Counted from the first letter of the stretch, positions 55,922 through 59,141 are shown. The stretch: DNA of 64,000 bases from Parachlamydiales bacterium (GCA_963704365.1 OY969899.1:1009806-1073805), one strand, 5' to 3'. Notes: a model not told the origin generated them from the letters alone. A program made the numbers and translations.

Positions 55922-57178
55922 TCAGGTATTGGAGGAGATAACAGACTGCAACTGTGCCCTTTCGGTATCCTGATCGTCTTCTAGCTCCTCATCATCCAAC
56001 TCTAAATCTGTCTCAAGAACATCCCACACTTCCTCAAGATCTTGGAGATAATCAGGGTGAGGACAATATTTCTCCTTGTTCCCAGTAAATGATCTTGCAA
56101 ACAGAAGAACTGCATTTTTTTCGTCTCCATCTGCCATTTTATCTAGGATTTGTGCTAACGGCCTATCTGACATTCTCCATCCAAGGTATGCAATAGCCAA
56201 CTGGCCAAGACATTTTTCTCTACCCTTGTAGCCTTCAGGAATGGAGAAAATCACTTCTCTTGCTTTTTCAAGCTCACCAAATTCAAACCAAAGGAGCGCC
56301 AAATGTTTGAAAAGTTCGTACCTGACACTCTCATCACACTTTAAAACCCAAGAGAAGGCACGATCGGCGTCGCAATGTTCCAAACATTTTCTTGCGATCT
56401 GTTCAGCAGAAGCCCCATCTAGAATCATCTTATCCAATGCTTTCAGAATCAAGTCCCTTCGATTAAAAATATTAGCAACGACCTCTTCAACTTTTTGTGC
56501 GTAGGCAGTAAGTGCTGTTTCCTCAATAAGAAGCACCCGGTGCATTTTTACTTCCCTTGATGTGAGAAGTGGCGATGCAAGGATTCTCAACTGTGGATTG
56601 TTAAGATCCTCTCCAGGAAGCCCATAAGGCAAAGAATCGTAGACAAAATCTACAACATCTTTTTTATGCTTTGCAGTCATAACAGTGATCACTCCACCAA
56701 CACCTGAAGTTGGGACAGATTCAATCAGAGAATCGATTGCTTTTGTGAATAGCCTAAAAGGGACTTTTTCTCTGAAAAAAATTGTTTGCAACATGATATC
56801 GATGTCATGATCCCCACGTTCTGGATCCACAAAAATACCCCAAGCAGATTCATTGGGCTCCTTTTGTTCTAAACTTGGACTTGCAGCAATCAGAAAATTA
56901 GAAATAACATCAGATTTGGTGTCGAAATCTTCAAAGGGGCGAAACCGTCTAAACAGCTCGCTTTCACTTTTGGGCGCTTGATCATGGGGATAACGGAGGA
57001 CTACCTTGTGACTTAAATCGACCTCCGGTCTTGAACGGAGTAAAACCTGTTTTGCAATTTCATGGTAGGCGACAAACTCTTCAGGTTGAGCTGTTGCACA
57101 AACAAATTCATTGCCCTCACTTAGCCTTTCAAATGCACCTAAGGCGTCCGCTGGGGATGTGATATAAACGTCCATCAT
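55922..57178 (-). CDS. Hypothetical protein, paralog family member 1 (about 418 aa)
   Basis: GGAG RBS before the ATG at 57178. Collinear with 57758-58948 (MDVYITSPADALGAFERL.. vs MDIFVKSPEEAMEAFSRF..; TAKHKKDV/TAKHKGDV; SLPYGLPG/SLPNGLPG). Acidic C-terminal tail. Confidence 0.75.
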   Translation of the reverse strand: MMDVYITSPADALGAFERLSEGNEFVCATAQPEEFVAYHEIAKQVLLRSRPEVDLSHKVVLRYPHDQAPKSESELFRRFRPFEDFDTKSDVISNFLIAASPSLEQKEPNESAWGIFVDPERGDHDIDIMLQTIFFREKVPFRLFTKAIDSLIESVPTSGVGGVITVMTAKHKKDVVDFVYDSLPYGLPGEDLNNPQLRILASPLLTSREVKMHRVLLIEETALTAYAQKVEEVVANIFNRRDLILKALDKMILDGASAEQIARKCLEHCDADRAFSWVLKCDESVRYELFKHLALLWFEFGELEKAREVIFSIPEGYKGREKCLGQLAIAYLGWRMSDRPLAQILDKMADGDEKNAVLLFARSFTGNKEKYCPHPDYLQDLEEVWDVLETDLELDDEELEDDQDTERAQLQSVISSNT

Positions 57179-57299
57179 CAATTCTCCTTTAAAGCGAAGA
57201 ATTCTAAATTAAAAATTAAAAAAATAACAGGATGAAGAGGGAAAAAAAATGCGGATCACCTGTTAGTGACCCGCGGCTAGAAGAAACGATTAGAGAATA

Positions 57300-57557
57300 T
57301 TATAAAATTGCAGCAGCTAGCTGAGAAACAGCAGTAGCTCCTAAAAGCGCACCACCAGCAGTCGCTGTTAAAACAGCCGCAGATGCGATCAACATTGTCA
57401 AAGGCAGTCTGTTCATCCCAGTAAGCTCTGGCGACCCTGCTAAGTAGTCAAGCGCCTTAAACCCGTTCTCTGTTTTTAATAAAGCCACTGCGCTTGCACC
57501 AGCCGATGATCCGCCTAAAAGTGCTCCTGCTCCTGCTGCGATGATTGGGAAACTCAT
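57300..57557 (-). CDS. Small Gly/Ala-zipper two-segment membrane protein (85 aa)
   Basis: GGAGAAAGAA RBS directly before the ATG. Hydrophobic segments are IIAAGAGALLGGSSAGASAVALL and MLIASAAVLTATAGGALLGATAVSQLAAAIL. Confidence 0.65.
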   Translation of the reverse strand: MSFPIIAAGAGALLGGSSAGASAVALLKTENGFKALDYLAGSPELTGMNRLPLTMLIASAAVLTATAGGALLGATAVSQLAAAIL

Positions 57558-57656
57558 TCTTTCTCCTTTTATTTAAAAGTATAGAATAATTTTAACTCGC
57601 CATGATTAATTCAATATGTAATTATTATTAATATTTATAAACCGACCTCTTCTCTC

Positions 57657-57733
57657 CCCTTTCCGCTAAGGGCCGTTCAGGTTATATACCAGCATCTAGT
57701 TGAAATGCGCAATTTCAACTAGATGCTGGTATA
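57657..57733. repeat. Palindromic repeat family, perfect hairpin copy plus 30-nt flank module
   Basis: Flank CCCTTTCCGCTAAGGGCCGTTCAGGTTATA (57657-57686). Arms 57685-57706 and 57712-57733 give 22/22 bp, with loop GCGCA. Confidence 0.9.
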
Positions 57734-57757
57734 AACAGTAGCCTAAAGATCCTGTTC

Positions 57758-58948
57758 CTAGGGCTTCATTTTTAACATTTGAAAAAACATTTTTTCATTC
57801 AAGTCTAAATCGAGCAGATAATCGTCATAGATATTCATGCTATATCGAGGATCGGGTGAATACTTCTCATGATCCCCTGAAAACTCCCTTAATTGGAAAA
57901 GGATCATGTTCTTTTGATCTCCATTTGGTATCTCTTCTAAGATTTGATCGACAGGAACAGTGCTATTTTTAAAAACAAGGCTTTGAATCACTAACTGACC
58001 AAGAAAATTGACATTGTCTTTGCTATCGGGGAAAGAAAAAATCAGATCTTTTGCCTTTTCGATCTCTCCATCTTCTAGCCATTGGGCTGCAATGAACTTT
58101 AAAAGTTCCAAACGAGTCGTAGGATTCTTGCAATCTAAGGCCCATTTGTATGCTTTATCCAATTGATGGAGGCTCAAATATCTCGTGGCTATTTCTTCTG
58201 CAGGGGCGTGGCTTGCCAACTTCGATTTTAGCACGGAACATTTGTTGTCTAAATTTTTGAATAACTTGTCGAACGCCTGCTTAACTTTAGCGATATAAGC
58301 AGTCATGCTTTTCTGATCGATCAGGATAATCCTATGAACTTGAACTTTTTCAGAGGTTAGAAGAGGCTCGCCCAAAACTCGCAACTCTCCACCCTTTCCT
58401 GGTAAGCCATTTGGCAAGGATTCATAGATCAGGCCATCGACATCGCCCTTGTGTTTTGCGGTGATCACTGTCAAAACTGACGGCTGGTAACCGTTCAAGG
58501 CAGGACATTGATCTATGAGATCATCCATTACCCCGCTGAAACGAATGCCTTTAGTTTCTAACAACTTTTCAACCTTTCCAAAATCGCTATAATCACTATC
58601 TTTAAAAGAATGGGTGTTCACAAATTGTTCCCAACCTCCGTCGAAATTTCGCTTTGCAGGGATGAGTAAAGGGTCGACCAAACGGCGGACATTTTCGTGG
58701 TCTCGGATATGAAATTTGGCAAAAAGCTCACCCACTGTTTTTGGAGCGCCCTTATCGCCTGTATAGGCAACAACAACTTTATCTTTTAAATTGGTCCCCA
58801 TTTCTGGCTCAGCTCTGACTAAGAACTGCTTTGCAATCTCTTGATAGGCCATGGTTGGAACAGCCGATACGCAAGCAAATTCGTTTTCTGCTTCAAAACG
58901 GCTAAAGGCTTCCATCGCCTCTTCAGGTGATTTAACAAAAATATCCAT
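57758..58948 (-). CDS. Hypothetical protein, paralog family member 2 (396 aa from ATG 58948)
   Basis: GGAG RBS before the ATG at 58948. The track start 59020 adds an unsupported leader. Collinear with 55922-57178. Confidence 0.75.
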   Translation of the reverse strand: MDIFVKSPEEAMEAFSRFEAENEFACVSAVPTMAYQEIAKQFLVRAEPEMGTNLKDKVVVAYTGDKGAPKTVGELFAKFHIRDHENVRRLVDPLLIPAKRNFDGGWEQFVNTHSFKDSDYSDFGKVEKLLETKGIRFSGVMDDLIDQCPALNGYQPSVLTVITAKHKGDVDGLIYESLPNGLPGKGGELRVLGEPLLTSEKVQVHRIILIDQKSMTAYIAKVKQAFDKLFKNLDNKCSVLKSKLASHAPAEEIATRYLSLHQLDKAYKWALDCKNPTTRLELLKFIAAQWLEDGEIEKAKDLIFSFPDSKDNVNFLGQLVIQSLVFKNSTVPVDQILEEIPNGDQKNMILFQLREFSGDHEKYSPDPRYSMNIYDDYLLDLDLNEKMFFQMLKMKP

Positions 58949-59141
58949 TACTTCTCCAACAATAAAATTATTAAACGGAAAGTTTAAATTAAACGGAATA
59001 AATGAGCAAATTACAATCAACTATCCCGATAAAACATCAAATCTATATGAATCCTCGGCTTTGTACAATTTTTGGATGAAGCCTTGAGAGGAGCTTTCTC
59101 CAAAGATGAGTTCAAAAATTGTCAAAGCCGAGGAAACGGTA

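Follow-up and report, generated by a model that had tools for sequence, protein, structure and literature searches.

Evidence for Tandem Duplication and Asymmetric Divergence within a Rare Protein Family of a Parachlamydiales Bacterium

Organization of the Locus

We examined a 64,000-nucleotide stretch of DNA from a Parachlamydiales bacterium (GCA_963704365.1 OY969899.1:1009806-1073805), hereafter called the window, with a focus on two genes for large proteins (gene 1 and gene 2) and on a small open reading frame (ORF) that lies between them. An initial annotation made from the sequence alone had described the two large proteins as paralogs that bracket a small membrane protein, and had proposed that they might serve either as an effector pair or as components of a soluble/membrane partner system. 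Our ORF calls place all three ORFs at the positions given in that annotation. The features of the locus, counted from the first nucleotide of the window, are as follows.

55156-55872, minus strand: gene for a DUF2608/HAD-type hydrolase, recognized by Pfam, adjoining gene 1 downstream
55882-55945, minus strand: frameshifted 3′ end of gene 1, with an extra base at 55945
55922-57178, minus strand: gene 1 (protein P0001), 418 amino acids (aa) as read in the window, from the ORF call
57251-57274, minus strand: predicted intrinsic terminator with a 10-base-pair (bp) stem, a 4-nucleotide (nt) loop, and T8, from a terminator scan
57300-57557, minus strand: small ORF (protein P0009), 85 aa, Gly/Ala-rich, preceded by an AGGAG ribosome-binding site
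57685-57733, no strand assigned: palindrome resembling a repetitive extragenic palindromic (REP) element, with a 22-bp stem TATACCAGCATCTAGTTGAAAT and a 5-nt loop
57758-58948, minus strand: gene 2 (protein P0008), 396 aa, from the ORF call and its paralogy to gene 1

By codon usage, all three ORFs look coding. Their in-frame scores are 0.26-0.28 bits per codon (0.27 for gene 2, whose ORF is uninterrupted, and 0.26 for the small ORF), and the confident genes of the window, which served as the yardstick, score 0.18-0.35. All other frames of the three ORFs are negative except for one frame of the small ORF, whose five alternatives range from -1.25 to +0.10. A GGAG-type ribosome-binding site precedes each ORF, and the strong site previously noted for the small ORF corresponds to an AGGAG box 6 nt 5′ of its ATG.

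The initial annotation was also correct that neither large protein carries a signal peptide and that none of the three proteins belongs to a recognized family. Searches of Pfam, NCBIfam, PADLOC, and PDB sequences returned no match that accounts for gene 1, gene 2, or the small protein. The defense models of PADLOC, applied at an E value of 0.1, gave no match for these proteins or for the DUF2608 protein. Rfam and tRNA scans detected no RNA gene in the locus, and the window as a whole contains no rRNA and a single tRNA.

Gene 2 as a Probable Recent Duplicate of Gene 1

The products of gene 1 and gene 2 align collinearly from end to end by BLASTP, with 38% identity over 393 columns and an E value of 2e-78. 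This is far beyond chance and confirms that the two genes are paralogs over their whole length. All of the motif blocks listed in the initial annotation fall within this alignment. Gene 2 has the same two-domain layout as gene 1 (see below), without the acidic tail.

Beyond this species, the only close relatives of gene 1 are the proteins P0002, P0003, and P0004, which share 54-58% identity with it. In neighbor-joining trees built on 379 columns with 500 bootstraps, these three and the products of genes 1 and 2 form one clade in every replicate (500/500), and gene 2 groups as the sister of gene 1 in 443 of the 500 (89%). In addition, genes 1 and 2 have the derived states TAKHK, PLLTS, and TAY in common, where the orthologs carry TAK(E/D/K)K, ALLPS, and QAF. 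Given this sister relationship and these shared derived states, gene 2 very probably arose by a tandem duplication in the lineage of this organism, after its split from the lineages of P0002-P0004. A tree in keeping with the alternative, namely that the duplication is older and was followed by losses among the relatives, was recovered in 20 of the 500 bootstraps. One point that weighs against a recent duplication is that the long branch of gene 2 could affect a neighbor-joining tree.

Relative-rate tests with an ortholog as outgroup revealed 92-103 unique changes in gene 2 versus 22-25 in gene 1, an asymmetry with p values between 6e-10 and 4e-13 (the latter for 103 versus 22 changes). By these counts, gene 2 has evolved about 4-5 times faster than gene 1. 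The excess divergence is strongest in the N-terminal domain (N-domain), where identity to gene 1 is 44% for gene 2 versus 63-66% for the orthologs. In the C-terminal TPR-like domain, the corresponding values are 41% for gene 2, 41% for P0003, and 50% for P0002.

A similar imbalance is evident at the most conserved positions. For these, we took the 32 columns of the alignment in which conservation reaches 75% or more in the remaining 24 members of the family. Of these 32 residues, 30 are retained in gene 1 and 23-32 in every other member, whereas gene 2 retains 13 and has replaced 19. The losses in gene 2 include Gln31, Arg62 and Pro64 of the LRYP motif, Ser100, Ser102, the Glu110-Ser111-Ala112 motif, Phe134, Gly162, and Gln196. 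Gene 1, which has retained the conserved residues and the ancestral position directly 5′ of the DUF2608 gene, is the ancestral-type copy. Gene 2 is best read as a putative “dead-site” or re-purposed paralog. Because its reading frame is intact at about 60% amino acid divergence, gene 2 is presumably under selection for something.

It might be argued that gene 2 is instead a decaying, nonfunctional duplicate, or a pseudogene in the making. Its loss of 19 of 32 family-conserved positions and of the acidic tail, its 4-5-fold faster evolution, and its occurrence in one species only among the searches made would all fit such a fate. However, neutral decay would have given gene 2 stops and frameshifts, whereas its frame of 396 codons has come through this divergence uninterrupted, with a GGAG ribosome-binding site and a codon score of 0.27. 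Furthermore, gene 2 is still collinear with gene 1 over its full length, and its TPR-like domain is no further from gene 1 than is that of P0003. Thus, we consider a pseudogene to be quite improbable, and gene 2 to be a re-purposed or dead-site paralog.

Gene 1 and the DUF2608 Gene as the Likely Conserved Unit

Three orthologous loci (L001, L003, and L011) each contain one copy of the family, and in each this copy and a DUF2608/HAD-type hydrolase gene share an overlap of 4 nt. In L001, the ortholog is located between the DUF2608 gene and hemL; upstream, the contigs L003 and L011 stop before any hemL could be seen. On the other side of the DUF2608 gene, two marC genes followed by truA are present in the contigs that reach this far (L001 and L003), which is the same neighborhood as in the window. 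A search of six-frame translations with hmmsearch found one family gene per orthologous locus, and none of the three loci has a second copy or the small ORF.

Broader searches led to a similar picture. Gene 2 retrieved only itself and the gene 1 clade in both a word search and an exhaustive search. The small protein gave no tblastn match in L001, L003, L008, or L009 and no relative in a metagenome scan, and its 90%-identity cluster consists of a single sequence, present on four contigs. The complete trio is confined to assemblies of this one organism that are nearly identical to one another (99.95-99.99% identity), and the four other assemblies of essentially this organism, L004-L007, have this level of identity over 5-8.6 kb. 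As far as searched, gene 2 and the small ORF are therefore found only in this species. The small ORF is a separate species-only insert that is no part of a conserved unit, and the conserved partner of gene 1 appears to be the downstream DUF2608 hydrolase gene.

The product of this neighboring gene matches the Pfam families DUF2608 (E value 1.2e-30) and Hydrolase (E value 7e-6). It begins with a signal-peptide-like segment and retains an intact motif I, DVDMT (DxDxT), within the sequence FDVDMTLV. Sequence searches revealed no solved relative of this protein, and we found no mention of it in a literature search.

Strong hairpins separate the three genes of the trio. The palindrome at 57685-57733 is perfect, lies 24 nt 3′ of the gene 2 stop codon, and as RNA is predicted to fold with -34.6 kcal/mol (z -9.4). 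The terminator at 57251-57274 follows the stop codon of the small ORF by 25 nt and precedes the start of gene 1 by 73 nt, with a predicted RNA fold of -17.2 kcal/mol (z -4.8). The terminator scan found none between gene 1 and the DUF2608 gene. Because of the hairpins between them, gene 1, the small ORF, and gene 2 are probably transcribed separately, and we infer three transcription units, namely gene 2, the small ORF, and gene 1 co-transcribed with the DUF2608 gene. A promoter-like site at 57327-57299, just upstream of the terminator, was given no weight, since the promoter scan yielded fewer sites than shuffled sequences did.

The proposal that the two large soluble proteins and a small membrane anchor form a three-part system draws on the adjacency of the three genes on one strand, their coding-like codon usage, and a small protein that is hydrophobic enough for membrane association, but it is very improbable given that gene 2 and the small ORF are missing from the orthologous loci, that none of the searches detected a relative of the small ORF, that a repeat-element hairpin of -34.6 kcal/mol lies upstream and an intrinsic terminator downstream of this ORF, and that the three proteins have no defense-system or family match in Pfam, NCBIfam, or PADLOC. 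Reading the apparent three-gene “system” as an accident of recent duplication and insertion removes a misleading lead. The evolutionary account that we favor, in which tandem duplication was followed by asymmetric site decay in gene 2, the small ORF is a species-only insert, and gene 1 is the partner of the DUF2608 gene, is very likely correct.

The palindrome itself is a dispersed REP-like element that recurs in full at 36759-36807, right after a RecD2-like gene. Each full copy sits just past a stop codon, that of gene 2 in one case and that of the RecD2-like gene in the other. Half copies occur at 34188-34206 and 34528-34546, and an exact 51-nt copy is found elsewhere in L005. Each of the contigs L004, L006, and L007, which come from sequencing runs assembled in Logan, terminates at this element, and this suggests that the genome carries many copies.

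The 3′ End of Gene 1

L005, L006, and L007 have CAGCTG at the place where the window has CAGTCTG, so that the extra base of the window is at 55945. Alignment of the window with these three assemblies shows one gap and zero mismatches. The extra base shifts the last ~24 codons of gene 1. When base 55945 is removed, gene 1 encodes a protein of 431 aa that is exactly P0005, and its frame ends with a TAA at 55884-55882, which leaves 9 nt to the ATG that starts the DUF2608 gene. The corrected protein ends in ...DLDASATSTDILT, in agreement with the ortholog tails, which end in ...LDASASTNKVLT. Because the base-removed tail matches those of the orthologs, the end of gene 1 at 55922 is a frameshifted end. 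Thus, the acidic tail that was originally described for this protein is present, but the end assigned to it at 55922 is frameshifted, and the corrected end is 55882. Two further assemblies (P0006 and P0007) exhibit yet other frame variants at the same spot. Site 55945 could represent either a real mutation or a sequencing error, and the spot either an error hotspot or a variable site.

The Small Gly/Ala-Rich Protein

The small protein contains many small-xxx-small motifs and two Ala/Gly-rich, moderately hydrophobic segments, the first spanning roughly residues 3-27 and the second roughly residues 51-85, which a polar stretch of ~23 residues separates. The mean Kyte-Doolittle value over 19 residues is 1.1-1.3 in the first segment and reaches 1.75 in the second. 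The description of an 85-aa protein with two segments rich in GxxxG/AxxxA is therefore borne out by its motifs, ribosome-binding site, and coding score. Its hydropathy is only moderate, and a membrane location is plausible.

Chlamydial Inc proteins offer one comparison, in that the small protein is short, has two hydrophobic segments, and is encoded in a probable Chlamydiae genome. However, the bilobed hydrophobic domain (two transmembrane segments with a short loop) sought as the mark of an Inc protein is absent from it. There is no tight bilobed hairpin, ~23 polar residues lie between the segments, the first segment has a low hydropathy of 1.1-1.3, and no relatives were found. A second comparison is with the glycine-zipper small membrane proteins (Pfam Gly-zipper families; YeaQ/YmgE type), which likewise are dense in GxxxG/AxxxA motifs and comprise about 85 aa. 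Unlike these, the small ORF has no hidden Markov model match in Pfam or NCBIfam at an E value of 1.

Predicted Structure of the Gene 1 Protein

An AlphaFold model of the gene 1 protein computed from a 25-sequence alignment has a mean predicted local distance difference test score (pLDDT) of 90.7 and a predicted TM-score (pTM) of 0.88. With only six sequences, the N-domain falls below a pLDDT of 50 and is unusable. The model divides the protein into the following parts, all encoded on the minus strand.

57178-56522, aa 1-219: α/β N-domain with seven strands
56521-56420, aa 220-253: long linker helix
56419-56009, aa 254-390: TPR-like domain, a stack of helix pairs
56008 onward, from aa 391: acidic tail, predicted with low confidence

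The TPR-like region has the character of a solenoid, with eight successive helices between residues 258 and 365 at pLDDT values of about 84-97. By sequence, gene 1 matches no Pfam family at an E value of 1, and gene 2 none of TPR type. Only two of the 25 family members touch TPR_19, at an E value of 0.04. Foldseek searches of the PDB returned TPR/PPR proteins as the best matches, with probabilities up to 0.99, weak E values of 0.04-0.5, and query-normalized TM-scores of ~0.2. Examples of such helical-repeat domains are consensus TPR designs (9qhc and 1na0), PilF (2ho1), and the TPR region of OGT (1w3b). The likeness to TPR/PPR proteins comprises the paired-helix stack at aa 254-390 and the cross-hits of the family profile to TPR/PPR-repeat proteins. 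The gene 1 protein differs from them in its acidic tail, in the attached α/β domain, and in having no Pfam TPR match at an E value of 1.

For the α/β domain, Foldseek found nothing in the PDB. In contrast to these PDB results, a comparison with predicted viral structures (BFVD) yielded two significant matches, the only significant structural ones found. The first is A0A1V0SG32 from Hokovirus HKV1 (E value 2.7e-6 over 280 columns), and the second is A0A481Z173 from Mimivirus LCMiAC02 (E value 1.5e-4 over 382 columns), a length sufficient for both domains. Sequence identity to these giant-virus proteins is 14-15%, and both are uncharacterized proteins with no annotated function. Within the N-domain, the alignment and the AlphaFold model together locate the conserved polar residues at or just after the ends of predicted strands. 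Active sites of Rossmann-like folds are usually found at strand ends.

A Small and Patchily Distributed Protein Family

A profile of six close sequences was used to search 1.84 billion cluster representatives at E < 1e-3. This search returned 37 proteins, of which about 28 carry the N-domain. Domain mapping sorts the hits into full-length proteins of 400-500 aa, proteins of 290-400 aa with the N-domain only, and C-region repeats. The last group carries TPR/PPR-type Pfam matches and comprises cross-hits rather than true relatives. The N-domain signature consists of T(A/G)Q...F.AY..IA, LRYP, hhSxSLE...ESA, G..TQIF.PK, Y.S.PYG, PQLR.L, and RYT. Across the family, this domain has no match in Pfam, NCBIfam, or PDB sequences.

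Word-indexed homolog searches reached the closest orthologs only, whereas the exhaustive profile search reached the wider family. Scanning species-representative genomes with gene 1 revealed no relative, scans of IMG/VR viral contigs revealed no sequence relatives, and a metagenome scan added one extra locus. Only two hits belong to named genomes, both of them metagenome-assembled genomes of Chlamydiae (L008, “uncultured Chlamydiae bacterium,” and L009, “Parachlamydiaceae bacterium”). Nothing relevant to the family emerged from a search of the literature. Thus, the family is small, rare, patchy, and uncatalogued, and neither it nor its N-domain has been described. It is well known for genomes of this kind that orphan genes for putative effectors with TPR domains multiply in tandem.

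Some of the more distant relatives are fused to a protein kinase. Pfam identifies a Pkinase domain in P0014, P0016, P0019, and P0021, mostly on the N-terminal side of the N-domain and on the C-terminal side in P0016, and inspection indicates the same kinase-type N-terminal sequence in P0020 and P0026. Because the match to solved eukaryote-like kinases extends only up to the DFG region, the fused domain is probably a minimal kinase. Hydrophobic N-terminal leaders, recognized by eye, are present in P0010, P0012, P0014, P0016, P0017, P0020, P0021, P0026, P0029, P0030, P0033, P0035, P0042, and P0044 and in the members from L008 and L009. Intracellular bacteria are known to secrete minimal eukaryote-like kinases, such as those of the NleH/OspG type and the LegK type of Legionella. 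The distant family members resemble these in that their Pkinase match spans only the catalytic loop and DFG, behind a signal-peptide-like leader. The two window proteins differ from them, as Pfam detects no Pkinase domain in either.

Several minor observations concern the surroundings of the relatives. In L001, a 463-aa gene at 12022-13413 on the minus strand has a weak Pkinase match and is inserted between the DUF2608 and marC genes, a position at which the window has no such gene. We considered this gene as a possible conserved kinase link and rejected it because it is unrelated to the fused kinases. An IreB match in P0018 was also dismissed as chance, being below the cut-off and in a helical region. 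The genes of ~615 aa that lie downstream of the relatives in L008, L009, and L010 are not homologous to one another. L008 additionally contains TPR-rich and other orphan genes. Together with the Fic-like and YopT-like genes described below for L010 and L008, these surroundings look like an effector-type neighborhood.

Possible Functions of the Family

Lineage-specific orphan genes are numerous in environmental Chlamydiae, and those that act on the host are difficult to single out. For the present family, we tentatively suggest an exported, host-directed module. According to this proposal, the α/β domain would bind or modify a small ligand or a protein through the conserved polar residues at its strand ends, and the TPR-like domain would hold a protein partner. 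In other members, the α/β domain would be exported behind Sec-type signal peptides, fused to minimal Ser/Thr kinases. The periplasm provides no ATP, on which a kinase beyond the bacterial cytoplasm would depend, and an exported kinase fusion would for this reason be expected to work in a host compartment.

This host-directed reading is favored because the leaders of most relatives would put the domain outside the cytoplasm, because the family is rare and patchy, and because its structural relatives occur in giant viruses, whose hosts are protists. It is also favored because relatives adjoin Fic-like and YopT-like genes. Specifically, the neighbor in L010 (1759-3612, plus strand) is a 617-aa protein with the Fic motif HPFPDGQGRT that scores 23.9 bits against the Pfam Fic model (cut-off 24). 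The neighbor in L008 (8112-9971, plus strand) is a 619-aa protein with a weak match to the YopT-type Peptidase_C58 (18.2 bits, cut-off 23). For the “effector pair” of the initial annotation, the kinase fusions behind leaders and the Fic-like and YopT-like neighbors provide circumstantial support at the level of the family, but the two proteins do not constitute a unit. Taken together, the evolutionary account and an exported, host-directed function form the best explanation as a whole, to which we give roughly an even chance.

Several points weigh against a host-directed function. Both the Fic and the C58 matches fall below the Pfam cut-offs, the leaders were judged by eye rather than with a predictor, and distant relatives show no synteny with one another. 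Gene 1, gene 2, and their orthologs have no N-terminal leader, and export of the gene 1 and gene 2 proteins themselves, which carry no signal peptide, is putative. The neighborhood of gene 1 is made up of housekeeping genes (hemL, marC, truA, tamB, and bamA), and a hydrolase operon beside hemL, marC, and truA fits a role in bacterial physiology just as well.

The main rival explanation makes the family a cytoplasmic bacterial protein that acts together with the DUF2608 HAD-type hydrolase in bacterial physiology, for example in phosphate-ester metabolism or in regulation, and not a host effector. The kinase fusions would then reflect a shared phospho-related role. The 4-nt overlap between the family gene and the DUF2608 gene, which is conserved at three independent loci (L001, L003, and L011), is consistent with this view, as are the lack of signal peptides in the window proteins and the housekeeping neighbors. 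In addition, the domain is tied to phospho-transfer enzymes in two independent ways, through fusion to kinases and through an operon with a HAD hydrolase whose DxDxT motif is intact. This phospho-transfer association fits either an effector or a physiological role, however. The leaders of most relatives would put the domain and the fused kinase outside the cytoplasm, and the DUF2608 protein itself has such a leader. Moreover, the distant relatives are not adjacent to DUF2608 genes, and the extreme rarity and patchiness of the family would be unusual for core physiology. We therefore regard a purely cytoplasmic, physiological role as possible but unlikely.

A more specific form of the host-directed proposal is that the α/β domain is a new catalytic or ligand-binding fold common to environmental Chlamydiae and giant viruses of protists that acts on host targets. 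The domain would serve outside the bacterial cell, whether on its own, combined with a TPR-like adaptor, or as a fusion with minimal kinases. The present genome would show it shortly after a duplication, with gene 2 as a regulator or decoy of the pseudo-enzyme type that emerged through loss of the active site. We offer this as a speculation that is unlikely to be right. Whatever its function, the domain defined by this locus is rare and uncatalogued, its structure is predicted with confidence, and its conserved residues form a clear signature. It recombines with modules of the kinase and TPR types, and its structural relatives occur in protist-infecting giant viruses. The locus also constitutes a natural experiment, with an intact-site copy and a lost-site copy side by side, such that the role of the site is directly testable.

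Comparison of the N-Domain with Known Enzyme Folds

Another possibility is that the N-domain is a very divergent, metal-independent GT-A-like (Rossmann-like) transferase that depends on a nucleotide or a nucleotide sugar. In such a model, the S-x-S-L-E...E-S-A loop would occupy the place of the DxD motif, and R62, R198, and R214 would replace the metal. GT-A, GT2, or “DXD” glycosyltransferases recur nine times among the sub-threshold BFVD matches (E values of 0.5-2), the conserved polar residues lie at strand ends, and the predicted order of strands and helices (β-α-β-α...β, followed by the motif and then by an antiparallel portion) is compatible with GT-A by our own reading, made with no superposition. 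However, all of these GT-A matches are nonsignificant, with TM-scores of 0.14-0.22, and no glycosyltransferase appears among the 50 PDB Foldseek matches listed or in the Pfam and PDB sequence searches. Furthermore, there is no family-wide DxD. The sequence S-x-S-L-E follows the corresponding strand, and ED(Y/F)DT is confined to one subgroup. A GT-A-like transferase is thus improbable.

An ADP-ribosyltransferase of the R-S-E type was also considered on the basis of the motif order R ... h-h-S-x-S-h ... Q-x-?, an equivalence drawn by eye only. This candidate was rejected, as the place of the catalytic Glu holds an invariant Arg (Q196-x-R198), and searches of the family against Pfam, NCBIfam, and the PDB found no ADP-ribosyltransferase family. 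Thus, we do not place the N-domain in either the GT-A or the ADP-ribosyltransferase family.

Other Features of the Window

Besides genes 1 and 2, the window contains at least two more tandem orphan pairs. The first pair (15984-18041 and 18187-20049, both on the plus strand) encodes paralogs of ~650 aa with 25% identity over 658 columns (E value 3e-36), each with a single Sel1-repeat match in Pfam. The second pair (41288-44134 and 44131-46311, both on the minus strand) encodes proteins of 948 and 726 aa whose genes overlap by 4 nt and whose sequences are 23% identical (E value 1e-14). Neither member of the second pair has a Pfam match, nor do the large ORFs at 23047-25860 (plus strand) and 30981-33947 (minus strand).

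A 302-aa orphan with no Pfam or NCBIfam match is encoded between truA and tamB (52137-53045, minus strand). At this position, L001 instead encodes an AAA_14 protein and L003 an orphan of 366 aa. At 60487-63914 on the plus strand, an NfeD-NfeD-FloA (flotillin-like) operon is followed by a gene for a 140-aa protein with a poly-Glu stretch and PPPPP, and this layout is the same in L001 and L005. Finally, the longest inverted repeat of the window is located at 407-483, where 29-nt arms composed of CTCTCTGTG-type units are 97% complementary and separated by a 19-nt spacer.

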